From NCBI GenBank assembly GCA_041640655.1, contig JBEPZV010000001.1, forward strand, positions 64,001-128,000: DNA of 64,000 bases, in the 5' to 3' direction. Source of the DNA: a bacterium (GTDB lineage Bacteria > Acidobacteriota > Blastocatellia > HR10). Positions 19,379 through 56,748 of the stretch are shown piece after piece (positions within the stretch are counted from its first letter, which is position 1; every line of letters begins with the position of its first letter). The notes below the pieces were generated by a model. It was not told where the DNA came from. It made no database searches and saw nothing but the letters and a program-made list of their open reading frames with translations. A program made the position numbers and the translations under genes.

Positions 19379-19408
19379 CTCGCCCTCACGAGGTCGGTAC
19401 TAAGGAGA

Positions 19409-19424
19409 TGCAAGCGGCATGCCG
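19409..19424 (-). promoter_or_regulatory. sigma54 promoter of glnD-glnK-amtB
   Basis: CGGCATGCCGCTTGCA (GG-N10-GC). Confidence 0.7.
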
Positions 19425-19892: not shown

Positions 19893-19973
19893 CAGGGTGC
19901 GGCTGAAGCGCTCGAGAACGGCGTCTTGTTTGGGCGAGCAAGGGTGGAGGGCGAAGTGCCCTAGGCCTTCGCC
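19893..19973 (-). mobile_element. Short integrase-core (IS481/IS3-like) transposase scar
   Basis: Translates GEGLGHFALHPCSPKQDAVLERFSRTL, which aligns with GPTHYWTYPKSPKMNAHAERFNRTI of the IS at 33 kb. Confidence 0.55.
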
Positions 19974-26747: not shown

Positions 26748-26768
26748 ATGCTGCTCCTCCGGTGAGGA

Positions 26769-28738: not shown

Positions 28739-28754
28739 CGAACTCCACCCTCAT

Positions 28755-41121: not shown

Positions 41122-41135
41122 AATTTTCCTCCCAT

Positions 41136-43223
41136 CTACGAACTCTCTTGCGCGTGGCCCTCTGGCCAAATCAGGATATTCAGATATTCGTCAACCTCTC
41201 CATAATGCCCGGGAAGGATCACCACCGTTGAATCTATTTGCGTGATTACTGCGGGACCGTGGATCACATTCCCGGGACGAAGCCGACTCCGATCGTAGAT
41301 CGCCGTGTCCAGGAAACCGCCTTGAAAGTAGATCTGATGATGATCCACCATCGCGTGCCGACTGTCGCTCCCCTCCCGCTCAAACCGAGGCAACTCGAGC
41401 TTCCGCACCATACCGACGCCGATGGCACGCACATTCACGACCTCAATCATCGAGTCGATGTTAAAGCCGTAGTTCTGCTGATGTACCCGCTTGAAGTCCG
41501 CCACGAGCTGCTCGAATCCGATAGCGTCAAGATCCACAACGCTGACAGGGATCGGGAACTCATAGCCTTGACGGTAGTAACGAACATCAACCTCATACTC
41601 GATATGCTGTCGTTCCGGAGGGATGCCCTCTCTCTGCAACCATTGGCGCGCTTCCTCGGCCAGTTTGAGCAGCAGGGTCTTGATCTCTGTGGGGGACGTT
41701 TGATCCAACGTCCGAATATATGTACGCGCGAATTCATTCTTGATGTCAGAATGTAAAAATCCAAGTGCTGAGAACACTCCGGGCATGAGCGGGACGATCA
41801 CCGGCCATGAGCCCGTCAGCCGCGCTAGCGCATTCGCATGCAGAGGGCCAGCCCCTCCAAAAGCCACTAAACAAAAATCACGGGGATCAAGTCCGCGTTG
41901 CACAGTGACCAATCGGATCGCCCCGAACATATTTTCATTGACAATATCGAGGATCCCCTGTGCAGCTCCGTAGAGATCTAACCCCAGTGCATCAGCGATC
42001 TTTTGCACGGCCCGACGCGCGGCTTCCACATCCAGCATCATCTCACCACCCAGCAGCTTCGGGGGGAGATGTCCGAGGATCACATTGGCGTCGGTCACCG
42101 TAGGTTCTTCCCCCCCTAAACTATAACAAGCCGGCCCTGGTTCTGCTCCCGCCGACTGTGGGCCAACCCGCAACGCCCCTGTAATCGGCACGTGCGCGAT
42201 CGAGCCCCCCCCCGCTCCAATCGATCGCACATCCACCGAGCGAACCTTCACCGGATAGTATCCAAGGCGTGTCTCCCGAGCCAGATAAGGACGCCCCCCA
42301 AAACTCACCGCCACATCCGTTGAAGTCCCTCCCATATCGAAGGAAATAACATTAGCGTATCCACAAAGCTGTCCAACATAACTGGCAGCGATAACTCCTC
42401 CCGATGGTCCCGACATCAAGGTATTCACCGGCTTATCGCTCGCCGCTTCCAAGCTCATCACTCCTCCATCAGAACGAAGGATGTTCACAACCGGTGCCAG
42501 CCCCTCCGCTTCCAACTTCTCCCGAATCCCACGCAAATATCCACTCATCCGCGGCCGCACGTAGGCGTTCATCACCGCCGTCAGCGTACGCTCATACTCC
42601 CGGAACTCCGGCAGGATGTCGCTGGAGATCGTCACTGATAAATCCCCACTCTCCCGCTCGATGATCCGTTTCACCTCCTGCTCGTGCATCGGATTCACAT
42701 ACGAATGCAGCAATGAGACCGCCAACGCTTCGACCTTCCTCCCATATAACCGTTGTGCCCAATTCTGGATCTCCAATAACGCTGCACGCACCTCGCCAAC
42801 ATCTAACGGGACCAACTCCTCGCCACGTGCGTTGATGCGTGCCGAAATCCCTCGCGTCAACTCCAACGGTGCCATCGGATCTGGCTTAATCATGATGATC
42901 CAGCCGGCCAATGGTCCCGGCGTCTGTCCACGCGCGACATGCAGAATCTGCTCGAACCCCTTATTTGTGATCAATCCCACGAGCGCCCCCTTCCCCTCTA
43001 ACACCGTGTTTGTAGCCACCGTCGTCCCATGCAAGATCAATTGGATATCCCGCGGTGAGATCCCCGCTATCTCGGCAATCTTTCGAATCCCATTGAGTAC
43101 GCCGATGGAAGGATCCGATGGTGTGGAGGGGACCTTGGTCAGGAACAGCCTCCCCGTCTCCTCATTGAAAAGCACGAGGTCCGTGAATGTTCCTCCAACG
43201 TCAATCCCCAAGCGATAGTTCAT
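41136..43223 (-). CDS. Hydantoinase A/oxoprolinase subunit
   Basis: GIDVGGTFTD, HGTTVATN, SGPSGG, DMGGTSTD. Confidence 0.93.
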   Translation of the reverse strand: MNYRLGIDVGGTFTDLVLFNEETGRLFLTKVPSTPSDPSIGVLNGIRKIAEIAGISPRDIQLILHGTTVATNTVLEGKGALVGLITNKGFEQILHVARGQTPGPLAGWIIMIKPDPMAPLELTRGISARINARGEELVPLDVGEVRAALLEIQNWAQRLYGRKVEALAVSLLHSYVNPMHEQEVKRIIERESGDLSVTISSDILPEFREYERTLTAVMNAYVRPRMSGYLRGIREKLEAEGLAPVVNILRSDGGVMSLEAASDKPVNTLMSGPSGGVIAASYVGQLCGYANVISFDMGGTSTDVAVSFGGRPYLARETRLGYYPVKVRSVDVRSIGAGGGSIAHVPITGALRVGPQSAGAEPGPACYSLGGEEPTVTDANVILGHLPPKLLGGEMMLDVEAARRAVQKIADALGLDLYGAAQGILDIVNENMFGAIRLVTVQRGLDPRDFCLVAFGGAGPLHANALARLTGSWPVIVPLMPGVFSALGFLHSDIKNEFARTYIRTLDQTSPTEIKTLLLKLAEEARQWLQREGIPPERQHIEYEVDVRYYRQGYEFPIPVSVVDLDAIGFEQLVADFKRVHQQNYGFNIDSMIEVVNVRAIGVGMVRKLELPRFEREGSDSRHAMVDHHQIYFQGGFLDTAIYDRSRLRPGNVIHGPAVITQIDSTVVILPGHYGEVDEYLNILIWPEGHAQESS

Positions 43224-43232
43224 AGACCATCC

Positions 43233-46200
43233 TCAGAAGACTAACTTCAAGCCAAACTGAATCTGCCGCGAGTTTTTCGCGCTTGTGATTGTCCCAAAGT
43301 TGGGATTCACGTTGCGCCCATCCGGGCCGGGAACGAACACGCGATCAGGAAGATTGAAGTTCGGGCGATTGAAGAGATTGAAGAATTCAGCGCGGAACTG
43401 CAAATTGATCTCCTCGGAGACTTTCGTCGTTTTCTGCAGGATTGCATCAACTTGCGCAAATCCCGGCCCATCTATAATGTTCCGTCCGGCTGTCCCTGGC
43501 AGAGCCTCGAACCCAGCCGGCGTCAAAAAGCCCAGCGGCGCCGTAAATACCGAGGTGTCGAACCAACGATGGGGACGCCGTTGATCAGAAGGCAGATTCG
43601 GATTCCCCCTCACATCCGGCCGCGGGAAGCGAAAGCCCGGCGGACTCCCTGTCGGATGCTGCGGTGTCAACGGTTGCCCCGAATGCAATGTGACGATCCC
43701 TCCAATCTGCCACCCCTCGCTCACCTTACCCCACGCCCCCCTCACCGAACGCCCAAACGGTAGCTCGTAGAGGAAACTCCCCACGAACCGATGGCGAACA
43801 TCAAAGTTCGCCCGCCCACGCTCGCAACGCAAACACCGTGGATCCTGCTCCCGTGTCGGCGCCCCTCCTTCCTCACGCGCCGAAGAGACCGTGTCGATCG
43901 CCTTTGCCAACGTATAGGAGGCAACAAACGAAAGGCCTCGCGAAAGCCGCCGCTCCAATCGAATGTACCCACTATGATAGGTGCTGGTAGCCCCACTGGC
44001 CTCCATAATGTAGAAGCTGAAATTCGGTACTGGCCGAGCCCCCGTCCTGAAATCCTCTGGATTCCCCGTGGTTAAACGATTCAAGTTGATACCCGTCGAC
44101 CCGACATAGGCGACCTCCACCATCGTATTCGCCGTCAACTGTTGCTGCACGTTCAGCGTATAGCTCTGGACATACCCGATAGGGAGATCAACCTGAGGGC
44201 TAATGCCACTGATCGGGATATTATGAGGATCAGAGAGCGGCCCATATGCGTCCGCATATCGGAGCGGCGGAAGTGGGGCTCCAAACCGAGCGAAGTCAAC
44301 GAGCACGAGCTGTGCCGTGAACGGCAACAAATTGCGCGAATCCGAAGAAGCCGACCAGTCACGCAGAGCGTTGTAAATCCCATATCCGGCCCGCACCACA
44401 GTTCGACCCGTTCCGAAGATGTCCCAGACGAGACCGAACCGTGGAGCCAGATTGCGAAAGTCAGTCTTTGTAACCGAACGCCCGAGCCCGCGCGACTTCG
44501 AAGTCACGAAACGAACCGGCGGTAATCCAAGATTCCGCAGGAGCGTATTATACTCAGTCACCAAACGGCCGTTGACCTCCGGTGGAAGCCGATCACCTGC
44601 AATGATGATCTCTCCCGTGAATTGGTCGAACACGGCGAGTCGATTGTTCACCTCATAGATCGGTGGAAAGACCTCATAGCGCAATCCGTAGTTCAATGTC
44701 ACACGAGGAGTCACACGATACTCATCGTGAAAAAAGACTCCGAATAGATTGGTGCGAAAGTTACCCGTCGTATCTCCTTGCAGCTTGACGATGCTCGCTG
44801 GACGATCCAATAGAAAGTCCGCCCGGGGATCACCAGTCACCAATACCGGAGATGCGAACGAGACGAATCCCCGAGTGAAGAAATTCGAGAGCGTATCAAA
44901 ACGCACGTGGTGATAGTCGCCACCGAACTTCAACACGTGTCGTCCCCTCGTCCAAACCAGGTTATTCCGGATGACATATTCGTTGTTCTTGCGAAAGAGC
45001 GGATTGAAGACATCCGAGTCTCCGAATTGCGAAAGCCCGGGCACCGTGTAGGCCGGGAACCCACGATCGCGTCGAGCGATTTCCTGATTCACCCCATTAA
45101 GCCGAGCGAAGTTGACGTCCTGATTGGCCGCCAGACGCTTTCCATCATAAAAGCTCCAGCCTATGCGAAGCTCGTTGATCACATTGTCCCTCAGAGTTGA
45201 AGTCAACCCAATGGCCAGATTCTGCGTGTCGTCTTCGATCGGCGTTGGAAACCCAGGCGGAGGCGGCGGATCAAAAGTCAGGATATTGTCCCCGAACGGT
45301 AAACTCTGATCACCCCGAGCCAAAATATAACGGGCAAAAAATTGCTGGCGAGGGCTGAATTGGTGATCGAAGCGCGCCACCACTTGATCCCGATCCTCAA
45401 TCCGTTTGGCGACCGAGACGTGATTGAGCCCGCGCTCGCTCGGCCTCAGGTTCGGCACAGGGAAGAACCGGTCAATGATCGCTCGAGCGATGGGACCAAT
45501 AGGCACCTGGTAGAAGGTCTTCCCCCCAATGGTAACAGTCGGAAATGGTCGCCCCGTCTCTGGATTGATGACCGGATTCTCGAAGAGCCCCTTCCGCTCG
45601 TTCTCCGTGAGAAGAGCCGAGAGAACCGTCTCCTCCTTCCGGATGCGCAGCCCCTCATAGGTGAAGAAAAAGAAGGTACGATCCTTCACAATCGGGCCAC
45701 CGAAACTCCCCCCCAAATTGTTCTGTCGGAAGGCCGGGATAGGGCGATCCGGGAGGTCAAAGAAGTTCTTCGCATCGAACTTATCGTTCCGCACGAACTC
45801 AAAGAGCGAACCATGAAAATTATTCGCGCCCGACCTCGTGAGGATGTAGACCTGTCCCCCACCGAACATCCCCGCCTCCGTCGAATATGAAGCTTGTAGG
45901 ACACGGAACTCTTGAATCGCCTCAATAGATGGCGTGACCGTGGGGACATTGAAGTAATGATCAATCGCCGGAATTCCATCAATAAGGTAATTATTCTGAT
46001 CATTGCGAGCGCCACTAGCAATGAACCCCACATTCCCTGTACTCGCTGTGTCGAAGCCACCGTTCCCCCCCTGCTCCTGCGGAGCGACATTCGGAGAGAG
46101 CAAGGCCAATTGTATGAAGTTGCGGCCATTAAGCGGAAGATCAACGACCCTCCGGTTCTCGATGATCTCTCCAATGGTCGTCGTCGTCGTATCCGTCAAC

Positions 46201-46595
46201 GGCGGTGCGGCCGTTACAGTGACAACCTCGGTCACTGTCCCCACACGCAATTCTATATCCAGCCGGAGAGTTTGATCGATCCGCAACATGATATCTCGGC
46301 GCACTTCCCTCTGAAATCCTGGAGCTTCAATGATGATCTCATAGGAGCCGACGGGCAAGAATTGAAGCGCGTAAAACCCACGCTCATTTGTCAACACCGA
46401 GCGCTCCAGGTTCGTCTCTGTATTCCGTGCCGTCACCTTAGCTCCTGCAACGGCCGCTCCCTGCTGATCGGTCACTAAGCCTTCAATATTCGCCGTCGTC
46501 CTCTGCCCGAGGGCACCGCTATCAAGTAATACAAGCGCCCCCAAAATAAAGAGAACCCAGGACTGCCTCAGCTTAGCGAATCGCCCCGCCATCAC
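43233..46595 (-). CDS. Oar-like TonB-dependent receptor
   Basis: Signal, GLVTDQQGA, LPLNGRN, TRSGANNFHGS, RQIQFGLKLVF. Confidence 0.93.
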   Translation of the reverse strand: MMAGRFAKLRQSWVLFILGALVLLDSGALGQRTTANIEGLVTDQQGAAVAGAKVTARNTETNLERSVLTNERGFYALQFLPVGSYEIIIEAPGFQREVRRDIMLRIDQTLRLDIELRVGTVTEVVTVTAAPPLTDTTTTTIGEIIENRRVVDLPLNGRNFIQLALLSPNVAPQEQGGNGGFDTASTGNVGFIASGARNDQNNYLIDGIPAIDHYFNVPTVTPSIEAIQEFRVLQASYSTEAGMFGGGQVYILTRSGANNFHGSLFEFVRNDKFDAKNFFDLPDRPIPAFRQNNLGGSFGGPIVKDRTFFFFTYEGLRIRKEETVLSALLTENERKGLFENPVINPETGRPFPTVTIGGKTFYQVPIGPIARAIIDRFFPVPNLRPSERGLNHVSVAKRIEDRDQVVARFDHQFSPRQQFFARYILARGDQSLPFGDNILTFDPPPPPGFPTPIEDDTQNLAIGLTSTLRDNVINELRIGWSFYDGKRLAANQDVNFARLNGVNQEIARRDRGFPAYTVPGLSQFGDSDVFNPLFRKNNEYVIRNNLVWTRGRHVLKFGGDYHHVRFDTLSNFFTRGFVSFASPVLVTGDPRADFLLDRPASIVKLQGDTTGNFRTNLFGVFFHDEYRVTPRVTLNYGLRYEVFPPIYEVNNRLAVFDQFTGEIIIAGDRLPPEVNGRLVTEYNTLLRNLGLPPVRFVTSKSRGLGRSVTKTDFRNLAPRFGLVWDIFGTGRTVVRAGYGIYNALRDWSASSDSRNLLPFTAQLVLVDFARFGAPLPPLRYADAYGPLSDPHNIPISGISPQVDLPIGYVQSYTLNVQQQLTANTMVEVAYVGSTGINLNRLTTGNPEDFRTGARPVPNFSFYIMEASGATSTYHSGYIRLERRLSRGLSFVASYTLAKAIDTVSSAREEGGAPTREQDPRCLRCERGRANFDVRHRFVGSFLYELPFGRSVRGAWGKVSEGWQIGGIVTLHSGQPLTPQHPTGSPPGFRFPRPDVRGNPNLPSDQRRPHRWFDTSVFTAPLGFLTPAGFEALPGTAGRNIIDGPGFAQVDAILQKTTKVSEEINLQFRAEFFNLFNRPNFNLPDRVFVPGPDGRNVNPNFGTITSAKNSRQIQFGLKLVF

Positions 46596-46651: not shown

Positions 46652-46709
46652 TATATAGCACGGGGTCCCTGTTTTGTCAATAGCTATAATTTCATTATAG
46701 TATTGTCAA
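46652..46709 (-). promoter_or_regulatory. sigma70 promoter with upstream palindromic operator
   Basis: TTGACA-N17-TATATA (46680-46652); palindrome CTATAAT-N3-ATTATAG at 46684-46700. Confidence 0.65.
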
Positions 46710-47859
46710 TTCCACCTGATCCAGACAGCCATCCAAAGACAAAGATATGGAGGCTCAGGGGGGGGAGAATCATACAGCGCACCTCTTCGATGCTACAAGG
46801 CTGGCAGAGGCAGTGGGAGCCGGGGGAGGCCGGAGATGGGCGGTGAAGCTCGGGGATGGCGCCATGGTAGATGAGTCGCAGCCAGAGGCTCCCCCGGAGG
46901 CGGGTGCAGAGATAGTCTTCGAGCATGCGCAGAGCGAGGCCGACGGCGGCCTGGTTCAGGGAGCGAAGGCTTCCCCGCCGTTCGCTCTGCCAACGGCGAT
47001 GCCGCCGATGGGCGTGCTCCCGCAGGGCACCTTCCCGGACGACGGCCACATGCTGCTCTTGCGCCAGACTGCCCAAGCAGAGCAGGCAGTGCTCCCCGGG
47101 TACGATCCAGCGCAGATCGGCGCCGAGAAGCAGGTCGTCACCTTCGGCGGGCAACACGCCCGTGCCCACATCCAGAAGCGGCTTCAGATACAGGGCGGCG
47201 AGCACGCCGCAGGCCCAGCGGGCGCCGTCGTGATCCACGGCGCAGAGGAGCACATCGGCGGCTTTGAGGGCGGAGAGGGCCGCCACTTCGGTCACCGAGC
47301 CGACGAGCGCGTGGATGTCCGCCCTCGGATTGAGGGTGTGCAGGCTCTCGGCCAGAGCCTGAGCCTTTGGCCGTCCCACATGCTCGGGCCGGAAGCCGTC
47401 GCCATCCAGGTTGTGCTCCTCCACATGGTCGGGATCCACGAGGGTGAGGCGTCGGACGCCGCTGCGCACGAGGGTATTGGCCAGAAGCGAACCGGTGCGG
47501 CCGCAGCCGATCAGGGCGTAGTGGAGCGCGCACAGGCGCTGCCAGCCGTATTCGCCCAGGGCGCCGGCGATGCGGGAGTGGCGTTCACCGGGTTCGGGAA
47601 AGGTTTCGGGCGCGAGGTCGTGGTCTGTGATCTCCGGCAGGCCCGGGGCGATGAGGCGCAGGGTCACCGGTTCTCGCCGGCCGTCGGGGCGCAGGAGATG
47701 GGCTGCGGGGAAGCCCGCTCGCGGCACGTGAGCGATGATGATCGGGGCCGCCCGCAGGCCATGCAAGACGGGCAGCGGCATCAACAGAACGCCCGTTTCC
47801 CTGCCCTGCTCCCTCCCGCACCTGATTCTTCCGCTCGCGTCCAGAGCGACGCCAACCAT
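46684..47859 (-). pseudogene. ThiF/MoeB (E1-like) adenylyltransferase, probably truncated
   Basis: IGCGRTGS, LVDPDHVE..NL, GRPKA, CAVDH.GAR, CLLC; ORF tail runs into the AT-rich TBDR promoter. Confidence 0.7.
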
Positions 47860-47981
47860 GTGCGAAGCAAGAGATTGAGGTGCTGGAAGACACCGGCGAG
47901 GTCAAAGGACTGCGATACCGAGTGCATGCGGATATCGGCCGGTGACCTCCGATGACTCAAGAGAGTGAAGAATTCTTCGCA

Positions 47982-48031
47982 TTGACTGAAACACGAAATC
48001 ACATATAATAACGCATCGAAACGTTTTTCGA
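47982..48031 (+). promoter_or_regulatory. sigma70 promoter and operator of the HTH-parA-rep operon
   Basis: TTGACT-N16-TATAAT; palindrome TCGAAA-CGTT-TTTCGA at 48016-48031. Confidence 0.65.
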
Positions 48032-48044
48032 GGGAGTTCTGACG

Positions 48045-48287
48045 ATGGTGGCAAAAGTCGAGGTTCTTCCCATCGGCGAGGCGGCCGAGTACTTGGGCGT
48101 CTCGCGGCGCAAGATCTGGCAGTTGGTGAAACGAGGGGAGCTCCCCAGCCGACCCGATCCCCTCGATCGGAGGCGGAAGCTCGTGCGGGTGGAGGACTTA
48201 GACAAACTCCGGGAGGGATCCTATGTTCGCTACGATCGGCATCGCCAATCAGAAAGGAGGCGTCGGCAAGACAACAACGGCCGTTAA
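48045..48287 (+). CDS. Excisionase-like HTH_17 DNA-binding protein
   Basis: IGEAAEYLGVSRRKIWQLVKRGELP; overlaps parA. Confidence 0.8.
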   Translation: MVAKVEVLPIGEAAEYLGVSRRKIWQLVKRGELPSRPDPLDRRRKLVRVEDLDKLREGSYVRYDRHRQSERRRRQDNNGR

Positions 48288-49017
48288 TCTCTCGGCCTGT
48301 CTGGCCCGAATGGGACGACGGGTGCTGCTGGTGGACCTGGATGCGCAGGCGAATGCGACAAACCATGTGGGCGTGGATCCCCCGCAGGACGAGATGCTGA
48401 GCTCATACGCCCTGCTGGTGGATAAGTCGCCCAATGTGCGAGCGATTCTCACCTCCGTCTCTCCCAACCTCCAGCTCGTCCCAGGACATATCGCCCTGGC
48501 CGAAGTGGATATCAAACTCTTCTCGACGATCAACCGGGAGACGCGGCTGCAACGGGCGCTGGCGCGGCTTCGGGAGGATTTCGATTACATCGTGCTCGAT
48601 TGTCCGCCATCGCTGGGCATCGCCACGATCAACGCCTTTTGCGCGGCGACGCACCTGATCATCTGCATCCAGACGAACTGGTTCGCCTACGAGGCATTGA
48701 AACGGTTGATGTCCATTGTCGAAGACGTCATGGAGGAGACCAACCCCAATCTGGTGGTCTATGCGCTGGCGACCCTGCATCGGCCGAACGTGAACATCCA
48801 TCGAGATGTGCTCGTGAAGATCCAGGAGACCTTCGAGCACTTCGCCCTCTCGTCGGTCATCCGACACACGGCCACATTGGCCGAGGCTTCGGCGGCTCGA
48901 CAGACGATCGTCGAGTATGCGCATGGGAGTCGGGGTCACATGGACTATCAAAATCTCGCCGAGGAGATCATCAACCGTGTCGAACGAAAAGCTCTCAAGA
49001 TCGCGCAAGCACTATGA
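48223..49017 (+). CDS. parA: ParA/Soj family ATPase
   Basis: NQKGGVGKTTT, VDLDAQAN, DCPPSLG. Confidence 0.93.
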   Translation: MFATIGIANQKGGVGKTTTAVNLSACLARMGRRVLLVDLDAQANATNHVGVDPPQDEMLSSYALLVDKSPNVRAILTSVSPNLQLVPGHIALAEVDIKLFSTINRETRLQRALARLREDFDYIVLDCPPSLGIATINAFCAATHLIICIQTNWFAYEALKRLMSIVEDVMEETNPNLVVYALATLHRPNVNIHRDVLVKIQETFEHFALSSVIRHTATLAEASAARQTIVEYAHGSRGHMDYQNLAEEIINRVERKALKIAQAL

Positions 49018-50236
49018 GATCCCGGATCTGCGGATCTCAGACGAGGAGTCGGCAGCCATCAAGCAGATCATGCGGCGGTTGAGGGGGAAGCCCGAGGACG
49101 TCTCGAGTCCTCCAGTGGGGACTCCCCCTGAGGCCTCCCTCCCACCCCAGGAACCGCAGCCCGAAGGTGGCTCAAAACGAGCCAGCTCAAAAAGAGCCAG
49201 CTCAATGAGCCAGCTCAAAACAAGCCAGCTCAAAAAGAGCCAGCTCAATTTGAGCCAGCTCGAATTGAGCCAGCTCACAGAGAGCCAGCTCTCGATGAGC
49301 CAGCTTGACGAAAATATTGCTTTGAATTGGCGAACGATCGAGCACACGCGGATCCCGCAAGTGGTCTTCGACGAGATCCTGCCCACACTGCCGGTGGCCG
49401 CACAAGGGATCTATCTGCAGCTTCTGCGGCTGACACTGGGGTTTCATCGGCCGGTGTGTCATATCAGCCTGGAAGCCCTTAAGTCTCGATGTAATCAGAG
49501 CTTAGCTAGCGTGAAGCGCCACCTGGAGCTTTTGATCCGGCGTGGCCTAGTCCGTAAAGTGGGCGTGAGATTCGGCGGATCCGACCGCGGGAGTTATCTC
49601 ATGCCGGTCATCCCCGGAGTGTTCAATGAGGAACCAAAGCCTGAAACAAGCCAGCTCAATATGAGCCAGCTCAATACGAGCCAGCTCATAGAGAGCCAGC
49701 TCTCGATGAGCCAGCTCACAGAGAGCCAGGTCAATTCGAGCCAGCTCTCCATGAGCCAGCTCAATATGAGCCACAAGAAATATGATGATGATGATCTTGA
49801 AATAAAAAGTCATCATCAGACTGAAAAGGCGGACGACGATGACTCGCCTCATTTGAAGAAGGTCAAGGAGATCTACGCTCGGTTGACGGGGAACACGTGG
49901 ACGGTTTCGGATACGCGGGCCTACCGGGAACACGGCATCCAGCAGTACCGACTGGAGCACGTGGAGGCGATCATGGAGGCCGTGGCCGAACGAGCGCCCG
50001 AACGCATCAACAGCTTCAACTACTTCGTGCGGGAGATCGTCACCGCCGCCCGCCCCGAGAGCCGAGGCGCCCGCCGCCGCCGCCTGGAGCAGATCGTCCG
50101 ACGCCTTCAGCAGCTGCACGTGGGAGCCGCCCAGTACGGCATCGCCGACCTGGCCGAGGACGTCAAACGCGCCTGCGCCCGCGAGGGCATCCCCTTCGAC
50201 CCCGACCTCTTCAACGAAATCATCGGTTTGGGATAG
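48977..50236 (+). CDS. Putative replication initiator or centromere-binding wHTH protein with SQLxx repeats
   Basis: GTG start after GAGGAG; central IYLQLLRLTLGF..CHISLEALKSRCNQSLASVKRHLELLIRRGLV wHTH-like region; helical C-terminus (INSFNYF). Confidence 0.65.
   Translation: MSNEKLSRSRKHYEIPDLRISDEESAAIKQIMRRLRGKPEDVSSPPVGTPPEASLPPQEPQPEGGSKRASSKRASSMSQLKTSQLKKSQLNLSQLELSQLTESQLSMSQLDENIALNWRTIEHTRIPQVVFDEILPTLPVAAQGIYLQLLRLTLGFHRPVCHISLEALKSRCNQSLASVKRHLELLIRRGLVRKVGVRFGGSDRGSYLMPVIPGVFNEEPKPETSQLNMSQLNTSQLIESQLSMSQLTESQVNSSQLSMSQLNMSHKKYDDDDLEIKSHHQTEKADDDDSPHLKKVKEIYARLTGNTWTVSDTRAYREHGIQQYRLEHVEAIMEAVAERAPERINSFNYFVREIVTAARPESRGARRRRLEQIVRRLQQLHVGAAQYGIADLAEDVKRACAREGIPFDPDLFNEIIGLG
49179..49306 (+). 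repeat. Array 1: nine copies of RAGCCAGCTY, period 15 bp (one 13 bp)
   Basis: Cores start at 49179, 49194, 49207, 49222, 49237, 49252, 49267, 49282, 49297. Confidence 0.95.
49648..49773 (+). repeat. Array 2: eight copies plus one partial of RAGCCAGSTC, period 15 bp
   Basis: Cores start at 49648, 49663, 49678, 49693, 49708, 49723, 49738, 49753 and (partial) 49768. Confidence 0.95.
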
Positions 50237-50403
50237 GGAAGGGAAGCCTGCCGCCTGAAATCGGCCCCTTGCGGCAGACGCTATGCCATCGCCGGACGCT
50301 TCAGGGAGAGGTCAGGACGGGTCAATGATGATGGCTCGGCAATTTCGGGATCATATCGGGCGTCGCAGCGGCACGGCCCGACCCCTCGTGGGCATCGTCC
50401 GGG

Positions 50404-50429
50404 TCGTCATCGAGAACCGGCGGGAGGGA
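50404..50429 (+). repeat. 26-bp direct repeat, copy 1
   Basis: TCGTCATCGAGAACCGGCGGGAGGGA, identical at 56907-56932. Confidence 0.9.
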
Positions 50430-50653
50430 TACGGAAACGATGCCCGAATGGGAATGGCTCGCCCAACAGATTGAAGGGCAATTCCTGAAGCGCAAAAGCT
50501 GCTCTGAGCGACGCCCGAGTGCCCTACAACTGCGTTCCATCCAGGATGCAGTCTGGGATGTGAACTTGTCAACCGCTCTTGCGGTTTTATCAATCCGTCT
50601 CAGCAAATTTGCTTCGATACGAGAGCGTTTGATATTGTCAAAGGAGGATCGCC

Positions 50654-50695
50654 ATGTCCAAGTACTTCCTGATTGAAACTGCGCTACCTCTCAGG
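50654..50695 (+). pseudogene. DUF1156-like methyltransferase 5' stub 1
   Basis: AAGGAGG RBS + MSKYFLIETALPLR. Confidence 0.55.
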
Positions 50696-50763
50696 GATCC
50701 CCTTTCCCTTCAGCAGACAACCAACTCGTCCAGCATGTCAATGACGACATTTGAGGTTCCGTC

Positions 50764-52047
50764 ATGATTCGCAGAGTATTCGTGGACGGATATAAGTCGC
50801 TGAAGGACGTGGGTTTGGAATTACAGCCGCTGACCGTTATCGTCGGTCCGAACGCGGCGGGGAAGAGCAATCTCTTTGATGCCCTGCGGCTTGTCAGCCG
50901 CATCGCAACGAGCCGCTCCCTGCAGGATGCCTTCGATGACCATCGGGGCGATCCATTGGAAGCCTTTGATTACAGCGAAAGGGGCATTGCCGGGCTTTTA
51001 GAGCACGAGCGGGCGCAGTTCACCATAGAAGTAGATGTCGAGTTGAGCGATAAAACGGTAGAAGGTGCCGAGCGGCTGATCCAGATGCATCGTGCTTTCG
51101 GTGGACAGGGAAACCATAGGGGCAAGCTTCGGAAAATAACGGAGCGCTTCTTACGTTACCGCATCACCATAGAGATTACTCCGAAGACGGGCGTCTTGCG
51201 TGTTGTGGACGAACGCCTTGAGGCATTGACCCGGACTCCCGAAGGGAAACTGCGCCCCGATGAGAGGCGACGATCATTTCTGGAAAAGGTAGGGGAGCGC
51301 CTCCGATTACGGATGGAGGGACAGGCGCGTCCCACGGAGTACGAGACCGGGCTAAACTACGCCATCATCTCCCAACCGGTTTATCCGCCACACTATCCGC
51401 ATCTGGTCGCCTTCCGGGAAGAGTTGTCCGGGTGGCAGTTTTACTACTTCGAGCCACGCATCATGCGGGAAGAGTCGGCTGTCAAGGAAGTCAACCGATT
51501 GCCTTCTTCCGGTGGGGATCTGGCAGCGTTTTACTATACGCTCAAGCAAAAGAGTCCGCAGCAGTTTGAAAACCTTCAACGCACTCTAAGGTCGCTTGTT
51601 CCGACTGTAGAGGGGATTGACGCCGAGTTGACCAAAGAAGGCAAGGTGCGGCTGAAGGTCAAGGAAAGAGGTGTGGAGTTTTCTGCGAAAGTGGTCTCCG
51701 AGGGAACGCTACGCATCCTGGGGCTGATGGCGATTGTGGGTCCAACCAATCCCGCCACCGTGATTGGCTTTGAGGAGCCAGAAAACGGCGTCCATCCCCG
51801 GCGGCTCAAACTCATCGCCGACTTGCTCCGCAACGCCGCCACACACCGTCAGATCCTCGTCAACACCCACTCACCTCTTTTGCCCGATTATCTGCAGGAC
51901 GCCTACCTTGTGCAGGTCCGCAAGAGGGAGGATGGGCATAGCGAGTTTGTGCCCCTTGCGGAGGCTGGTGGTCTACAGGTAGAGAAAGCGCTGGAGGAAG
52001 AAGTGGTACCTATATCGCAACACATCCTGAGAGGGGATTGGGAATGA
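50764..52047 (+). CDS. AAA_21/ABC-type ATPase
   Basis: GYKSL, GPNAAGKSN, SEGTLR, FEEPENGVHP, NTHSP. Confidence 0.9.
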   Translation: MIRRVFVDGYKSLKDVGLELQPLTVIVGPNAAGKSNLFDALRLVSRIATSRSLQDAFDDHRGDPLEAFDYSERGIAGLLEHERAQFTIEVDVELSDKTVEGAERLIQMHRAFGGQGNHRGKLRKITERFLRYRITIEITPKTGVLRVVDERLEALTRTPEGKLRPDERRRSFLEKVGERLRLRMEGQARPTEYETGLNYAIISQPVYPPHYPHLVAFREELSGWQFYYFEPRIMREESAVKEVNRLPSSGGDLAAFYYTLKQKSPQQFENLQRTLRSLVPTVEGIDAELTKEGKVRLKVKERGVEFSAKVVSEGTLRILGLMAIVGPTNPATVIGFEEPENGVHPRRLKLIADLLRNAATHRQILVNTHSPLLPDYLQDAYLVQVRKREDGHSEFVPLAEAGGLQVEKALEEEVVPISQHILRGDWE

Positions 52048-52637
52048 GCCGCACGCGTCAGGTTGTCTGCTTTTGTGAGGACATCGCTCATGAGAGGTTT
52101 ATTAAGGCTCTCATCCAGCGGGCAGGAGCAGAGAAAAATGTCGCCGTGCAAATCAAAGTGCTCAACGCCACGCACGGAAGTAAGGTGTGGAACGAGTTTC
52201 GGCAATACTTGCGAGAACTCAAGGCAGGAACGGCGTCCCTGCTCGATATTTTGGTCGTGGTGATGGATGGTAACTGCCAAACAGCAGCAAAAGTTCGGAA
52301 AGATATTGAGGAGGAGGTTATGAAGGTGGGCTTGACCATTCCCCATCTCATCTGTGCCGTTCCCGATCCCCATATTGAGCGATGGTACCTGGAAGACCAG
52401 CACGCATTCAAAAAGGTCTTGCCCAAAGTGCAGCCGCGAAAACTCCGCTACAAGTGCGAGCGCGACCGATACAAGAGAGCGCTCGTAGAAGCCATACGAG
52501 CGGCAGATATCGAGCCTCTGCTTGGAGGCGCAGAATACGGGGAAGAGATCGCCCAAGATTTAGACCCGGCCAAGCTTGATCGCTCGTTTCGAGCCTTTTG
52601 GAAAGACCTTGGTGCTGCGTTAGGAGAACACTCGTAA
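52044..52637 (+). CDS. DUF4276/RloB-like TOPRIM-type partner protein
   Basis: FCED..HE, VVVMDGN, VPDPHIERWYL; ATGA coupling to the ATPase. Confidence 0.7.
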   Translation: MSRTRQVVCFCEDIAHERFIKALIQRAGAEKNVAVQIKVLNATHGSKVWNEFRQYLRELKAGTASLLDILVVVMDGNCQTAAKVRKDIEEEVMKVGLTIPHLICAVPDPHIERWYLEDQHAFKKVLPKVQPRKLRYKCERDRYKRALVEAIRAADIEPLLGGAEYGEEIAQDLDPAKLDRSFRAFWKDLGAALGEHS

Positions 52638-52709
52638 ATATGAGCGACGAGAATTTTTCCAACGCAGACTCTGCGAGAAAATGGAGAATTGTATGAGAGG
52701 AGGGAAGCG

Positions 52710-52805
52710 ACGCCCCAGCGCTTTCTGGTTGAAACCGCACTGCCTCTCAAGGGGCTTTCCAAACAGGCCCGGCGTGAGAAGGCCATCCGCCACGGGCATA
52801 TGTCA
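52710..52805 (+). pseudogene. DUF1156-like methyltransferase 5' stub 2
   Basis: GAGGAGG RBS, ACG in place of ATG, PQRFLVETALPLKGLSKQARREKAIRHGHMS. Confidence 0.75.
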
Positions 52806-52836
52806 GGATATACTGTAAAAGTCAGGAGGCTTTAAA

Positions 52837-55572
52837 ATGCAGAAGCGCAGTGCGAGCAAATTTGCCAAAGCTCGCTGGATACGAACAGACCTCCATCTCC
52901 ATTCGCCTGGGATCCATAGCTTTAAATTCCCCCGAGAATGGAGCGATCAACAGCAGGACCAGGTGATTGCAGAGTATATTCAGCAGCTAAAAAACCAGGG
53001 AATCCAAGCGTGTGCCATTACCGATTACCAGCAAATCCGTGAAGAGTGGTTCAACGCCATTCGAAGACAGGCCCACGAGGAGGGGATCTTCGTCTATCCC
53101 GGTGTCGAACTCTCCTTTGGGGGGACGCCCTCCGGAAAATACGGCTTACATGTTCTGGCCATCTTTCCATACGAGATGCAACCTGCTGACATCAACAGAA
53201 CGATCCAGAATCTGGATGACTGCCCAAAAGAGCCGCTGATTGGCACAGATGGAACACACCGGGATATTGTTCCAAAGGGGCGTATAGAAGAATGCCTGAT
53301 TCGTCTCCGTCAGGAAACCGGTTGCATTCTGATTTTCGCCCACTCGAATGATGACAACGGTCTGTTCAAAGCCTATCAATCCCAACAAGCCGCCGAGCTT
53401 CTCCGTCAAGTTCGGCCGGAAGCGGTGGAAAACCTCAGCGACAAGGACCGCGAGCGACTGTTGAGTACGGGCAGGCTGGACGAAGCGCTTTTGCGTCGTA
53501 TTGCCACCATCTACAACAGCGACAACCACAGTATTGACGAAATCGGCACAAAAACCCTGCCCGATGGCACCCGCCGGGCCACCTATCTGAAACTGAGCGC
53601 GCCCGACCAAATTCAGGCCATCCGTCTGGCGCTTCGGGATTGGGAGGTCCTCGTTCGCCTGAGCGAGAAGCCGGAACCCATCCATACCCGCATCGAGACG
53701 CTGGAGGTGGACGGCAAGGGCTTCCTGGGAAACTTCCGTCTGGCTTTCAGCCCCGATCTCAACGTGCTCATTGGCGGCCGTGGCGTGGGGAAATCGGCCG
53801 TGCTGGAGGTGATCCGCTATGTCCTGGACCTTCCGGTGTATGGGCCTGCGGAATACCGGGAGGGCCTGGTTCGATACGCCCTGGGAAGTGGGGGAAAGGC
53901 CATCCTCTTCCTGCACCAGGTGGTAAAACCCGGTGTCGAACGCCGCTATCGGGTGGAACGAGTCTGGGGTGAGAAACCCCGGGTCTTTGAACTCACAGAG
54001 CAGGGCGAACGCCCCATCGAATTGCTCCCTCAGGATCTCTTTACCGAAGCTGACCAGCCTCTCTTCTTCGGTCAGCGGGAGATTTACGAGATCACTCAGT
54101 CCACCCGTCTGCGGCGGAAGCTGCTCGATGACCTCATCGGCCGCCCGGCCCGCGAGCAACTTCGGGAAGTGGAAAAAATCCGCCAGGAACTGCGCCGCAA
54201 TGCCCGGGATCTTCTTGAATACCGCCGTTACGAAGAACGGATGGAGGAGGTGGAAAAACGCCTCAAGGAAATCGAACATGAGATCCGCCTTTACGAATCG
54301 CAGGGTATCGCGGAAAAGCTCAGGGAAGAAACCGCCCTCACCCGCGACGAGGAACGCTTGAAGCGCCTGGAAGAACACCGGCAGCAGTACGAACAAGAAT
54401 GGGAAGAGCTGCGTAGGCGCTGGCGGGAGCGCTGGGAGACCACGCTGGCCGACCTGGCGCAAGCGGCAAGCCGACAGAAGGACCTCATACAGGAAGCAGC
54501 TCAGGCCTTGCAAGAACTACGGAGCGCTTTTGAAACCCTCTTTTCCCAGGGTGAGGAGGCCTTGTATACATTCCGGCAGCAACTGCATTCCTTGCGGCGC
54601 CGCTGGCAGGAATCCCGGCGAGCGCTGGACGAGGAGCTGCGGCAGCTCCGCCAGCAACTGGGAGACACGGCACTGGATCCCGATCGTCTCGCCAAACTCA
54701 CCGCCGAACAAGCACGGTTAAAATACGAGCTCGAGCTGTTTCAGAAAAAGGCCGAGGAGGCGCAAAAGGCTCGCGAGGAACGGAAAGCCCTCCTTCAACG
54801 GCTCCGCGATGCCCAGCGCGAAGCGTTTCGGCTGCGCCAAAAATGGGCGGAACAAATCACCGAGCAAATTAAGGATCGAGTGCGCGTAGAGATCATTTAT
54901 CGTGGCCAGCGGAAAGAATACGCCAACCGCTTGAAGGACTTTTTCAGCGGCTCACGAGTGCCAAGCAAAGACCTGGAAAGCCTGGCTCAAAATGAAAAAA
55001 TACCCGATGGACTGGCGCTGGCGGAGCGTGCCCGCAAGGGCAAAGAGACGCTCTCCCAGGAATCGGGGCTGAGCGAGGCCCGAGCCCAGCAGCTGATTGA
55101 TTTCCTCAATCAGGATGAAAGCCGGTGGTTTGAACTGGAGTTGCTAACGCCGGATGACGAAGTGCGGGTCTCGTTGAAGGTGAACGAACGCTGGGGGATT
55201 CTGGATACACTGTCCGCTGGCCAGCGGGCCACCGCCATGCTCCTCATTCTCCTGACCCAGGCTCCTCGGCCGCTCCTGGTGGACCAGCCCGAGGATGACC
55301 TGGACAACCGCTTTATCTTCGAGGATGTGGTCCAGCTCCTGCGCCGTCAAAAGGACCGCCGCCAGCTGATCATGGCCACCCACAATGCCAACATCCCGGT
55401 GCTCGCCCATGGGGAGCTCATCGTCGCCCTGGAAGCGGAAGCGGAAAGGGCGCGCATCGCCGTTCAGGGAGGATTGGATCGTCCTGATGTGCAAGATATA
55501 GTGCGCCGGGTGATGGAGGGCGGCGAGGAAGCCTTCCGTCGGCGCGCGGAGAAATACGGACTGGAGGTTTAA
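52837..55572 (+). CDS. PHP domain fused to coiled-coil ABC ATPase (Ppl/TrlF-like)
   Basis: DLHLHS, AITDY, GVEL, FAH, NSDNH; GGRGVGKS, long coiled coil, LSAGQR, VDQPEDDLD, ATHN. Confidence 0.85.
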   Translation: MQKRSASKFAKARWIRTDLHLHSPGIHSFKFPREWSDQQQDQVIAEYIQQLKNQGIQACAITDYQQIREEWFNAIRRQAHEEGIFVYPGVELSFGGTPSGKYGLHVLAIFPYEMQPADINRTIQNLDDCPKEPLIGTDGTHRDIVPKGRIEECLIRLRQETGCILIFAHSNDDNGLFKAYQSQQAAELLRQVRPEAVENLSDKDRERLLSTGRLDEALLRRIATIYNSDNHSIDEIGTKTLPDGTRRATYLKLSAPDQIQAIRLALRDWEVLVRLSEKPEPIHTRIETLEVDGKGFLGNFRLAFSPDLNVLIGGRGVGKSAVLEVIRYVLDLPVYGPAEYREGLVRYALGSGGKAILFLHQVVKPGVERRYRVERVWGEKPRVFELTEQGERPIELLPQDLFTEADQPLFFGQREIYEITQSTRLRRKLLDDLIGRPAREQLREVEKIRQELRRNARDLLEYRRYEERMEEVEKRLKEIEHEIRLYESQGIAEKLREETALTRDEERLKRLEEHRQQYEQEWEELRRRWRERWETTLADLAQAASRQKDLIQEAAQALQELRSAFETLFSQGEEALYTFRQQLHSLRRRWQESRRALDEELRQLRQQLGDTALDPDRLAKLTAEQARLKYELELFQKKAEEAQKAREERKALLQRLRDAQREAFRLRQKWAEQITEQIKDRVRVEIIYRGQRKEYANRLKDFFSGSRVPSKDLESLAQNEKIPDGLALAERARKGKETLSQESGLSEARAQQLIDFLNQDESRWFELELLTPDDEVRVSLKVNERWGILDTLSAGQRATAMLLILLTQAPRPLLVDQPEDDLDNRFIFEDVVQLLRRQKDRRQLIMATHNANIPVLAHGELIVALEAEAERARIAVQGGLDRPDVQDIVRRVMEGGEEAFRRRAEKYGLEV

Positions 55573-55575
55573 GCG

Positions 55576-56748
55576 ATGAACGAGCTGGAACTCCTGGAAC
55601 GTATCCAACGAGGAGAAAATCTGCACACAGAATTTAAACGGGAAGATGCGCAGTCCGATGACATCGCCGCCTCCCTGGTGGCCTTCGCTAACACGGACGG
55701 CGGCCAGCTGATCTTCGGCGTGACCGACGATGGACAGATTGTGGGTGTCCCGGATCCCGACCGCCTGATGCAGCGGGTAGACCAGATCGCCTACCAGAAC
55801 TGCGAGCCGCCCATCACCGTGCTTCAGGAAACCGTGCGCACCGGGAGGGGCACCGTGGTGGTGGTTCACATCCCCAAAGGCGACCAGCGTCCCTATCGCA
55901 CGAACCGGGGGGACTTCTTCATCCGCACCAGCTCGGGACGACGTCGTGCTTCCCGTCAGGAACTCCTGCGTCTCTTCCAGTCGGTGGAGAGTCTCTACTA
56001 CGACGAAACCCTCGTGCTAAGGGCGGATCTGGCTGATTTGGATCTGGATCATTTCAAGCGGTTCTTCGCCCGCGCTTACCCTGACCAGGCGCTCTCCGAA
56101 GAGAACCTGCTTCCTGTATTGCAAAACATGAAGCTGGTGGGCCAGCACCAGCACCGCTGGGTCCCCACCGTGGCCAGCCTCCTCTGTTTCGGTAAGGACC
56201 CCCAGCGTTTCCTTCCCGGCGCTGAGATTCGAGCCGCGCGTCTCCCCGGAACCACGCTCGCTGCCGAGCCCGGCGACGCCAAATCCATAGGCGGCAACCT
56301 CTTCGACATGCTGGAGGACGCCATGCGTTTCCTCCACATTCACTTGCCTGTTGTCCATCGAATCCGTGGACTGGAGCCGGAAAGGCATCCCATGATTCCT
56401 GATGAAGCCCTACGGGAGCTTCTGGTGAACGCGCTGGTGCACCGCGACTACACCATTACCGCTCCCGTTCGCGTGTTGCTCTTCGACGATCGACTGGAGA
56501 TCCGCACACCGGGACAGTTGCCGAACACGGTAACCGTGGAGGCTATCCTTCTTGGAGCAGCCCACGTATTGCGGAATCCCACCATCTACCTGATGTTTTA
56601 CCGCGCCGGCTTGGTTACTCACCTCGGAAGCGGCGTCCTGCGGGCCAAACAGGCGCTCGAGCGTAGCGGCAAGAGGCTGCAAATGCAGCAGTCCGAAACG
56701 GAATTCATCTCCACGATTCTCTGGGAACAGGATGGAGGTCTGCCATGA
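55576..56748 (+). CDS. Schlafen AlbA_2 + HATPase_c_4-like protein
   Basis: GENLHTEFK, VAFANTDGGQLIFGV.DDG, ALRELLVNALVHRDY, LEIRTPG, LGSG. Confidence 0.88.
   Translation: MNELELLERIQRGENLHTEFKREDAQSDDIAASLVAFANTDGGQLIFGVTDDGQIVGVPDPDRLMQRVDQIAYQNCEPPITVLQETVRTGRGTVVVVHIPKGDQRPYRTNRGDFFIRTSSGRRRASRQELLRLFQSVESLYYDETLVLRADLADLDLDHFKRFFARAYPDQALSEENLLPVLQNMKLVGQHQHRWVPTVASLLCFGKDPQRFLPGAEIRAARLPGTTLAAEPGDAKSIGGNLFDMLEDAMRFLHIHLPVVHRIRGLEPERHPMIPDEALRELLVNALVHRDYTITAPVRVLLFDDRLEIRTPGQLPNTVTVEAILLGAAHVLRNPTIYLMFYRAGLVTHLGSGVLRAKQALERSGKRLQMQQSETEFISTILWEQDGGLP

Follow-up and report, generated by a model that had tools for sequence, protein, structure and literature searches.

The stretch analysed here (the window) comprises 64,000 nucleotides, positions 64,001 to 128,000 of contig JBEPZV010000001.1 (C1) in assembly GCA_041640655.1, from an acidobacterium of the HR10 lineage. 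Between positions 47960 and 50238 of the window lies a compact unit of three overlapping genes, which encode a small helix-turn-helix (HTH) protein, a ParA-type ATPase and a 419-residue protein, here called Rep. Two arrays of a short DNA repeat are written into the rep gene on either side of the part that encodes its winged helix-turn-helix (wHTH) domain, and we discuss this unit as a candidate replication and partition cassette of the plasmid type. Its parts are listed below in window coordinates; ORF stands for open reading frame and pLDDT for the predicted local distance difference test score of the structural model.

47982 to 48009, plus strand: sigma-70-like promoter, TTGACT-16-TATAAT, agreeing with the consensus at 11 of 12 positions and unchanged across the three aligned genomes
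48016 to 48031, no strand: 16-bp palindrome TCGAAACGTTTTTCGA, downstream of the -10 box and ahead of the first gene, a candidate operator to which the HTH protein might bind
48045 to 48287, plus strand: small HTH gene, 80-residue ORF, HTH_17/excisionase family, tail overlapping parA by 65 nucleotides
48223 to 49017, plus strand: parA, 264 residues, Walker A motif KGGVGKT (NQKGGVGKTT), without an N-terminal HTH domain
48977 to 50236, plus strand: rep, 419 residues, GTG start at 48977, ORF open from 48917, overlapping parA by 41 nucleotides
49040 to 49081, plus strand: N-terminal amphipathic helix of Rep, residues 22-35 (...AAIKQIMRRLRGK), after a basic tail, pLDDT 74-80, candidate ParA-contact motif
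49164 to 49306, plus strand: array 1, nine cores with a 15-bp period and one 13-bp step, plus a degenerate unit, encoding a segment predicted to be disordered
49337 to 49612, plus strand: winged-helix domain of Rep, residues 121-212, pLDDT above 90
49648 to 49774, plus strand: array 2, eight cores with a 15-bp period and a partial ninth, GAGCCAC (49768-49774), encoding a linker predicted to be disordered
49779 to 49818, no strand: A+T tract, 75% A+T, with 9-bp inverted arms, 5 bp past array 2, candidate DNA-unwinding element, encoding YDDDDLEIKSHHQ
49844 to 50233, plus strand: C-terminal domain of Rep, residues 290-419, all-helical, pLDDT above 90, candidate helicase or primosome recruiter

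The module of HTH, ParA and Rep-like proteins recognized in the initial annotation is borne out by profile searches. The first protein is of the HTH_17/excisionase type (HTH_17 in Pfam, 5e-11; TIGR01764, 1.9e-8) and is 100% identical over 61 residues in G002, a genome of the same genus. The second is a ParA (AAA_31, 3.7e-54; phrog_164, 1.7e-62) with 99.5-99.6% identity in G002 and in G005, also of this genus, and it scores 111 bits against TIGR03453, for which the cut-off is 348 bits. The third has a wHTH domain of the lambda-O/HTH_36 type, and its start was set at the GTG at 48977 because homologues begin there. To judge from the sequence, the palindrome TCGAAACGTTTTTCGA, in which one position varies among the three genomes, is probably the site where the HTH protein represses the operon. 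No repeat block was found outside the genes of the conserved cassette; upstream there are only the promoter and this one 16-bp palindrome. A genome-wide profile search found no ParB_N gene on C1, its only two matches being on contigs C3 and C6. The early statement that no ParB is present therefore stands for ParB_N on C1, while a small centromere binder of another type may still be encoded there.

The repeat core GAGCCAGCTC is 10 bp long and near-palindromic. With at most one mismatch it is found 24 times in the window, a number reached by none of 100 shuffles (shuffle mean 7.35). The plus strand holds 17 of the 24 copies in two blocks that flank the wHTH-coding part, nine at 49179-49306 (starting at 49179, 49194, 49207, 49222, 49237, 49252, 49267, 49282 and 49297) and eight at 49648-49762 (starting from 49648 to 49753 in steps of 15 bp). 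Tandem Repeats Finder (TRF) reports a period of 15 for both arrays, with 9.2 and 8.3 copies. Because the sole 13-bp step in array 1, from 49194 to 49207, shifts the frame, the first two cores are read as KRASS and the following 15 as SQL or SQV. A degenerate, inverted-like unit with 2 mismatches (49164-49173) borders array 1. The exact 10-mer of the core occurs 38 times on both strands of the whole 3.13-Mb assembly, 13 of them within these 700 bp, and the assembly holds no second cluster of it. The A+T tract ranks in the top 0.04% of window 40-mers by A+T content, corresponds to the third least stable 60-mer of the window and lies in surroundings of about 58% G+C; its arms TGATGATGA and TCATCATCA fold with -8.1 kcal/mol (z -3.0), and one of 200 shuffles folds equally well. 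Mismatch counts, shuffles and TRF thus confirm the 17 cores described at first sight in two 15-bp arrays around the wHTH, and the 13-bp frame shift and the A+T-rich tract with inverted arms were likewise found as described. Minus-strand terminator-like matches within array 1 were rejected, being the repeats themselves, and an Rfam scan of 47000-51000 returned only chance miRNA-like matches on palindromic repeats.

The arrays were compared in a three-way alignment of the window gene with those of G002 and G005, whose Rep proteins are 91-93% identical to that of the window. Within the cores only 1 of 170 sites varies, and only 1 of 66 third-codon sites, against 112 of 316 third-codon sites in the rest of rep. 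The spacers differ at 26 of 73 sites with non-synonymous changes (K/N/L/T/E), and the A+T tract at 4 of 59. These counts agree with the first impression of cores nearly invariant at synonymous positions between varying spacers. G002 carries one additional 15-bp unit, the core of which is the reverse complement. A more distant homologue in G039, 41-49% identical, served for a test of codon usage. In its S-Q/R-L motifs the codon CAG is used 6 times out of 6, against 24 CAA to 9 CAG elsewhere in the gene; serine is AGC in 9 of 10 cases, against 12 of 40 elsewhere; and leucine is CTC or CTA in 9 of 9, while TTA or TTG make up 23 of 48 elsewhere. This choice of codons preserves AGCCAGCT contrary to the gene's own usage. 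The initial annotation had named an SQL peptide kept with free synonymous variation as the pattern that would speak against it, and the uniform CAG of the G039 motifs is the reverse of that pattern. Selection on the arrays, as far as sequence comparison can tell, acts at the level of DNA.

The structure of Rep was modelled with AlphaFold2 from a 66-row alignment. Residues 124-200 match HTH_36 (2.4e-4) and Phage_rep_O (2.3e-3) in Pfam, both under the curated cut-offs, and the protein matches phrog_678, 'replication initiation O-like', in PHROGs (1.1e-10). Phage_rep_O (PF04492) is found in 57 of the 66 aligned relatives (E <= 0.01, best 8.6e-12) and HTH_36 in 44, and one relative reaches 32.0 bits against the Phage_rep_O cut-off of 28.7. 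Many relatives also have a K/R-rich tail with a motif resembling x-[RK]-[LF]-L-G-[KR]. The pLDDT falls below 50 at residues 74-116 (array 1) and at 239-253 and 260-270 (array 2 and the Asp-rich run in the linker), and the mean over 10-residue blocks is at most 58 throughout residues 221 to 290; in the model, then, both arrays encode disordered linkers. Foldseek places the N-terminal domains of RepA_N initiators (4pql, 4pt7 and 5kbj) first for the wHTH domain, with E of 0.02-0.09 and TMt of 0.47-0.49. In VIA, 4pta_D has a Z of 8.4, with a root-mean-square deviation (rmsd) of 2.7 over 81 aligned positions, and stands amid numerous generic wHTH rows with Z of 8-9.6. The likeness to RepA_N initiators is one of common fold and no proof of kinship, and a profile search of the PDB with Rep returned generic wHTH regulators only, at E of 2e-3 or above. 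The C-terminal domain modelled alone has a pLDDT of 90, and no Pfam family was found on it in the window Rep or in the 66 relatives (PF07261 included). Its second half matches the cullin WHB weakly (VIA Z 7.0), and a protein atlas ranks DnaB_2 clusters first for it (0.89-0.91), with only 85-92 shared features, which makes this a lead only. The structure search suggested at the outset thus recovered a wHTH fold by Foldseek and VIA, and gave no Foldseek match for the C-terminal domain.

An exhaustive profile-free search found 491 representative clusters of Rep (50% identity) at E <= 1e-3, and 180 at E <= 1e-10, nearly all from Acidobacteriota. Of the 24 closer proteins, one is misnamed 'pentapeptide repeats' by its source and the others are listed as hypothetical. 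Searches with tblastn found no match of Rep at E <= 1e-3 in 72,556 plasmids of PLSDB or in 50,697 phage records of INPHARED, and no description of this family was found in the literature searched, so that 'little-described', as it was first called, still holds. Of 128 representatives having both domains, 104 show the same tripeptide three or more times, distributed over both sides of the wHTH (8-16 in 20 shuffles); in 52, each side holds two copies or more (0-1 in shuffles). The repeated tripeptides are of at least 60 kinds among the 128, and an Asp/His run stands immediately before the C-terminal domain in 77. At the DNA level, 12 loci of relatives have arrays of 12, 15, 18 or 33 bp inside the ORF with unrelated cores, and two of them read one same 12-mer both as IERS and as LNVQ. 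A further 32 loci have 26 distinct top 8-mers, found on both sides of the wHTH in 25 and absent from the flanks in 26; in 13 the top 8-mer is not confined to a single frame, its copies following at steps of 13, 16 or 17 bp. Across the family the period ranges from 12 to 33 bp, and periods of 16-17 bp cycle through all three frames. The most A+T-rich 40-mer of the ORF falls in the linker in 18 of the 32 loci. From these sequences the family signature is an array, a lambda-O-type wHTH, a second array with an AT-rich or Asp/His tract, and a helical C-terminal domain. The check proposed at the start, whether homologues keep arrays with different cores, gave a positive answer, and the cores co-vary with the protein as expected of pairs of initiator and iteron.

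Two variants within the family were observed. In L034:7165-8571 (G040:C27) the arrays and the Phage_rep_O-type wHTH are kept and the C-terminal domain is replaced by DnaA_N (PF11638, 1.9e-11); an HTH_17 gene lies directly before parA at this locus, and a tyrosine integrase gene about 1.2 kb further upstream. A sister clade with the same SQL core (41-47% identity) has an ORF of about 68 residues with CPxC...CGxC directly after rep, zinc-ribbon-like and without a Pfam match, which is absent from the window cassette. It was found at the following loci.

L027, 6595 to 6804, minus strand: ORF of about 68 residues after rep
L100, 2611 to 2826: the same
L102, 2085 to 2330: the same
L103, 2885 to 3124: the same
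L107, 2910 to 3116: the same
L110, 2890 to 3093: the same
L111, 2930 to 3136: the same

These data also bear on the view that the repeats are peptide repeats, pentapeptide-like or serving as a flexible spacer, which would be selected as protein and have no role as DNA. Weak matches to Pentapeptide_4 and to an NCBIfam pentapeptide model (E 0.007-0.023, far under the cut-offs), the name that one source gives to a homologue, and the persistence of SQL in 21 of the 104 representatives with a repeat on both sides can be cited in its favour. Against this view, the third-codon sites of the cores hardly vary while 35% of those elsewhere do, the same DNA is read as KRASS and as SQL, the synonymous codons are biased, G002 has an inverted unit, and the spacer residues vary freely. 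Moreover, the 16-17-bp periods of relatives run through three frames, and AlphaFold2 predicts disorder and no beta-helix. The codon bias in G039 together with the third-codon invariance in three genomes leaves this explanation next to no room, and we consider it extremely improbable.

The arrays are found together with parA in most relatives. The gene immediately before rep is parA in 7 of 9 distant loci and in 30 of the 38 loci taken from the genome collection, where a contig end truncates 5 of the 8 exceptions. Ahead of parA stands a small HTH gene in 4 of the 7 distant parA-rep loci and in at least 11 of 29, its family changing among relatives (HTH_17, MerR_1, Xre). Homology at the nucleotide level between the window genome (G000) and G002 (93%) or G005 (90%) is limited to 47949-50238, with unrelated flanks; the shared block runs from just upstream of the promoter (conservation begins near 47960) to the rep stop codon, and all three genes are intact in the three genomes. 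At two loci, L030:8136-8825 (minus strand) and L031:5701-6573, an AAA_22 ATPase gene takes the place of parA directly upstream of rep, and BREX genes (BrxL, PglZ) adjoin one of the two.

The gene order, the lack of any other repeat block and the basic tail with its motif suggest, from sequence, that Rep may act in place of ParB. One could go further and take Rep as mainly a ParB-like centromere adaptor, with the arrays as the centromere of ParA and replication beginning elsewhere. The overlapping parA-rep adjacency, the lack of a ParB_N gene on C1, the arrays being the sole repeat cluster of the conserved block, and the short helix in the basic N-terminal tail of Rep all fit such a role. It is harder to reconcile with a DNA-binding domain of the lambda-O family, with an A+T-rich unwinding tract kept beside array 2, with DnaA_N in place of the C-terminal domain in one relative, with arrays in relatives without ParA (L030, L031 and L097), and with the finding that no other initiator lies beside the cassette. 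As the whole function of the unit we think it very improbable. A predicted complex of two ParA, two ATP and Rep residues 1-60 (score 0.09, mark 0.32) was uninformative on binding.

An origin inside the initiator gene, in its linker-coding part, is known for lambda O (PMC7466680), for RepA_N plasmids (PMC5703833, PMC7145576), for pT181 and for repC (PMC3155836). The general principle is not new, and the comparison with lambda O and repC drawn in the initial annotation was apt in that both have the origin inside the initiator gene. In ori-lambda, iterons and an A+T-rich tract lie in the middle of O, within the stretch that encodes the inter-domain linker (PMC7466680), and in Stx phages changes in iteron number add or remove residues of the initiator. 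Rep resembles lambda O in an N-terminal DNA-binding domain that matches Phage_rep_O in 57 of the 66 relatives, and array 2 and the A+T tract resemble ori-lambda, in anatomy only, by lying inside the candidate initiator gene downstream of the part that encodes this domain; as in the lambdoid Stx phages, changes in iteron number alter the length of the protein. Unlike lambda, the neighbours here are ParA, in the same operon, and candidate defence genes, there is no match to a phage record and no P-like loader gene, and the C-terminal domain is unrelated by sequence. The sites also number 17 and are short, with a 10-bp core at a 15-bp period, compared with 4-6 iterons of about 19 bp each in lambda, and an extra array lies upstream of the part for the DNA-binding domain. 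Judged by sequence, the domain belongs to Phage_rep_O when the family as a whole is considered, and the context is not that of a phage.

For pSK41, PMC5703833 describes an N-terminal wHTH domain that binds Rep boxes centrally within rep, a C-terminal domain that recruits a host replication protein, and a central linker that is encoded by the origin and dispensable as protein. The origin candidate of the window is likewise central in rep, in a linker-coding part, as in the RepA_N plasmids of Firmicutes (pSK41, pTZ2162). It differs from them in phylum, in having two arrays instead of one, and in a fold match not above that of generic wHTH domains; an Rfam scan of 47000-51000 gave nothing relevant to the antisense-RNA control described for those plasmids. 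RepA_N itself (PF06970) has no match at E <= 1 in the window Rep and is absent from the 25 of 27 families listed for the 66 relatives (E <= 0.01).

In p42d, oriV lies within repC near an A+T-rich region, and repC is free of iterons (PMC3155836). Like the repABC systems of Alphaproteobacteria, the window cassette combines in one operon a ParA-type ATPase and an initiator gene with a putative internal origin. Relatives have several cassettes of different specificity per genome, much as rhizobia carry several repABC replicons. Unlike repABC, C1 has no RepB/ParB gene, Rep is without a RepC match in Pfam, and iterons dominate. Membership in RepA_N or in repABC fails on sequence.

In P1 and F, where the initiator belongs to the Rep_3/RepE type, two iteron blocks outside the gene bracket its coding region, one forming part of the origin and the other acting in copy control by pairing, and partition genes lie nearby. 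In the window, by contrast, the ORF itself contains the two blocks, and they enclose no more than the part for the DNA-binding domain. The cassette resembles type Ib ParA systems in its short, 264-residue ParA with a deviant Walker A and no N-terminal HTH, and in the small gene for a DNA-binding protein in the operon. Unlike in type Ib, however, parA is followed by a gene for a putative initiator of 419 residues and not by one for a small centromere binder, the HTH gene precedes parA, and there is no repeat block outside the genes, the conserved block ending at the rep stop codon. The features of a generic iteron-type theta replicon are present: 17 direct cores, an adjacent A+T tract and an initiator gene in cis.

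The composition of C1 also draws attention to the cassette. The contig is 224 kb long with a G+C of 0.61 and has no tRNA gene and no DnaA. The dnaA gene and one ParB gene are on C3, where the cumulative GC-skew minimum lies at 66 kb. C1 shows a second V-shaped profile: the skew is -0.069 on the left side, stays level over some 36 kb to the right of the cassette and then turns positive. Its ORFs of at least 150 residues are distributed 24 plus to 56 minus to the left and 52 plus to 22 minus to the right. The step in skew (right minus left, 20 kb) at the cassette was ranked against all positions of the contig on seven contigs. It is within the top 2.2% on C1; within the top 2.2% on the 270-kb G039:C4, where the cumulative minimum is 178 bp past the cassette; within the top 3.8% on G010:C71, where the cumulative minimum is 5 kb from the cassette; and within the top 9.8% on G039:C18. 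No remarkable step is seen on G041:C13 (26%), G039:C15 or G040:C27, and the seven contigs combined give a Fisher p of 0.006. Skew and gene strand both change over at the cassette on C1 and on three other large contigs. DnaA lies on contigs other than that of the cassette in G039, G010, G002 and G040. The stretch 1-20000 of the window shares its gene order with G002 and G005 alone and to some extent with G006, and rep is absent from four of six genomes of the genus, so that C1 looks accessory. The ends of C1 do not overlap; a 225-bp direct repeat (97.8%) joins the head (1-225) to about 223324-223548, its second copy lying about 0.7 kb from the tail, which is insufficient to call C1 circular. 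At about 36-42 kb on contig C6 of the window genome, the second ParB_N gene (C6:40877-41146), with parA-like DNA beside it, lies at a maximum (inverted V) of the cumulative skew, opposite to dnaA on C3 and to the cassette on C1.

We interpret 47960-50238 as a cassette for replication and partition of the plasmid type, namely an iteron-type theta replicon whose origin lies inside rep in the manner of ori-lambda and pSK41, with a probability of roughly 0.8. The one promoter would drive a self-contained unit of a small HTH regulator, ParA and Rep, the last consisting of a basic N-terminal tail, a lambda-O-type wHTH, two predicted disordered linkers and a helical C-terminal domain. By analogy with lambda and pSK41, the wHTH would bind each GAGCCAGCTC core. 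Rep on the eight sites of array 2 may form a nucleoprotein complex that melts the adjoining 40-bp A+T tract, to which the C-terminal domain could then bring the host helicase or primosome. Since domain I of DnaA is the helicase-contact domain, this last step fits the DnaA_N swap in one relative. Array 1, with nine sites about 340 bp upstream of array 2, would be a second Rep-binding block, most likely there to control copy number by pairing with array 2 or with further copies, to assist the wrapping of the origin, or to act as a centromere. Binding sites would be tolerated inside the ORF because the array segments encode disordered peptide, and the SQL repeats and the DDDD/HH runs may then be a protein 'shadow' of DNA signals. 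What the initial annotation had proposed is retained as to a replicon-type unit with DNA-level repeats inside an initiator gene; the binding of these repeats by Rep is put forward by analogy, and its centromere and its partnership of Rep with ParA are kept as candidates, the latter on gene order and the basic N-terminal tail.

Several points weigh against this interpretation. The Pfam scores of the window Rep are under the curated cut-offs (HTH_36 21.3 against 25 bits, Phage_rep_O 18.9 against 28.7). The C-terminal domain has no significant match among solved structures: Foldseek on the domain alone gives nothing with E < 1.6, and all VIA rows are below Z 8 (SPP1 G39P 1no1, Z 6.2; DnaD-domain 2i5u_A, Z 6.1, rmsd 2.6 over 65 aligned; 2zc2_B, Z 5.7). 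There is no DnaA-box cluster, a single box with 1 mismatch lying at 48417 inside parA and none near the arrays. On two of the seven contigs nothing switches at the cassette, for 2 others the result is ambiguous, and the skew trough of C1 is broad (110-150 kb), with the formal minimum 35 kb from the cassette. The rep gene is missing from 4 of 6 genomes of the same genus. The assembly consists of 128 contigs and is 90% complete, and given this fragmentation and the lower G+C of C1 (0.61 against 0.626-0.647), C1 may be mis-binned. Slippage or conversion might have contributed to the homogeneity of the arrays, against which the variable spacers speak. Finally, we infer Rep binding, melting of the tract and replication alike from analogy.

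The way in which relatives occur counts on the same side. On the 1.96-Mb contig G042:C14 (15000-80100, L116-L119), five same-strand ParA-Rep cassettes, two with split genes, lie 13-22 kb apart within 80 kb near one end, and from their sequence they look like tandem integrated elements; an integrase fragment precedes one of them (L092). Tyrosine integrases lie directly upstream of or near the cassettes in L032, L034, L092 and L113. G043:C50 holds three copies in a span of 23 kb, G041 has 14 strong matches spread over 12 contigs, and G039 has three cassettes (C4, C15, C18), the cores differing within each of the latter two genomes. Such numbers per genome mean either co-resident replicons, integrated elements or mixed bins, and, judged by gene content, the family clearly also lives as integrated elements. 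Because relatives occur in tandem or broken copies and beside integrases, a cassette copy need not be an active origin. The window copy could thus be the module of a silent integrated element or a captured plasmid fragment that fires after excision or never. These tandem, broken and multiple copies, the integrases, a first gene of the excisionase family, the sharing of the 2.3-kb cassette alone with G002 and G005, the candidate defence genes immediately to its right and the flat skew on that side agree with this possibility. It accounts less well for the coincidence of the skew step and gene-strand switch with the cassette, for a contig without tRNA gene or DnaA, and for three genes that are intact and near-identical in three genomes. 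Furthermore, the scan of 47 window ORFs yielded no integrase, the sole recombinase-like match being an rve transposase 14 kb away. We regard a silent copy as unlikely, and as the most serious of the alternatives. A prophage or satellite was rejected for the window copy, with no phage gene or integrase among the 47 ORFs.

Directly to the right of the cassette (50764-56748) is a run of candidate defence genes, which encode an AAA_21 ATPase with a DUF4276 protein (PADLOC HEC-01A, 3.8e-67, and HEC-01B, 9e-8), an SMC-like ATPase of 911 residues (Ppl, 6.3e-46) and a Schlafen AlbA_2/HATPase_c_4 protein. On the left a ThiF/E1-like gene on the minus strand (46684-47859; ThiF, 7e-28; PADLOC E1-E2 models, about 1e-16) abuts the cassette. 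Two similar cargo blocks (22837-32078 and 39295-46595) each contain hydantoinase A and B genes and a gene for a large CarboxypepD_reg/OMP_b-brl_4 outer-membrane protein, with a GntR regulator nearby. The only recombinase-like gene found in the window is a transposase-like ORF at 33071-33970 on the minus strand (HTH_23 and rve integrase core).

The points that we consider new are the Rep family itself, the two arrays bracketing the segment for the DNA-binding domain, arrays that disregard the reading frame, the pairing of ParA and Rep without ParB, and the link to large contigs without DnaA in Acidobacteriota. A wider proposal would make the cassette a dual-role replicon, in which array 2 and the tract are the origin, array 1 is a centromere or copy-control element, the basic N-terminal tail of Rep activates ParA in place of ParB, and ParA-Rep cassettes are the main system of plasmids and secondary replicons in Acidobacteriota. 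This is speculative, and we give it slightly less credence than a silent copy. If true, it would account for genomes in which as many as about 14 copies occur, each cassette with its own core, and would make the 2.3-kb cassette a ready vector backbone for Acidobacteriota.

As a replication and partition cassette, the unit belongs to a large replicon family, undescribed as far as we searched and nearly confined to Acidobacteriota. It would present an unusually clear natural case of overlapping codes, with arrays of sites, some of non-triplet period, and an unwinding element written through an ORF, and annotations such as 'pentapeptide repeat' or Asp/His low complexity would be explained as shadows of DNA signals. 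The constant pairing of ParA and Rep without ParB makes it testable whether an initiator doubles as partition adaptor. To our knowledge, plasmids and vectors for Acidobacteriota are scarce, and a 2.3-kb cassette with a putative intragenic origin is a natural candidate for the backbone of a shuttle vector. Finally, contigs of 120-270 kb without DnaA that reach their skew minimum at the cassette point to large secondary replicons in Acidobacteriota.

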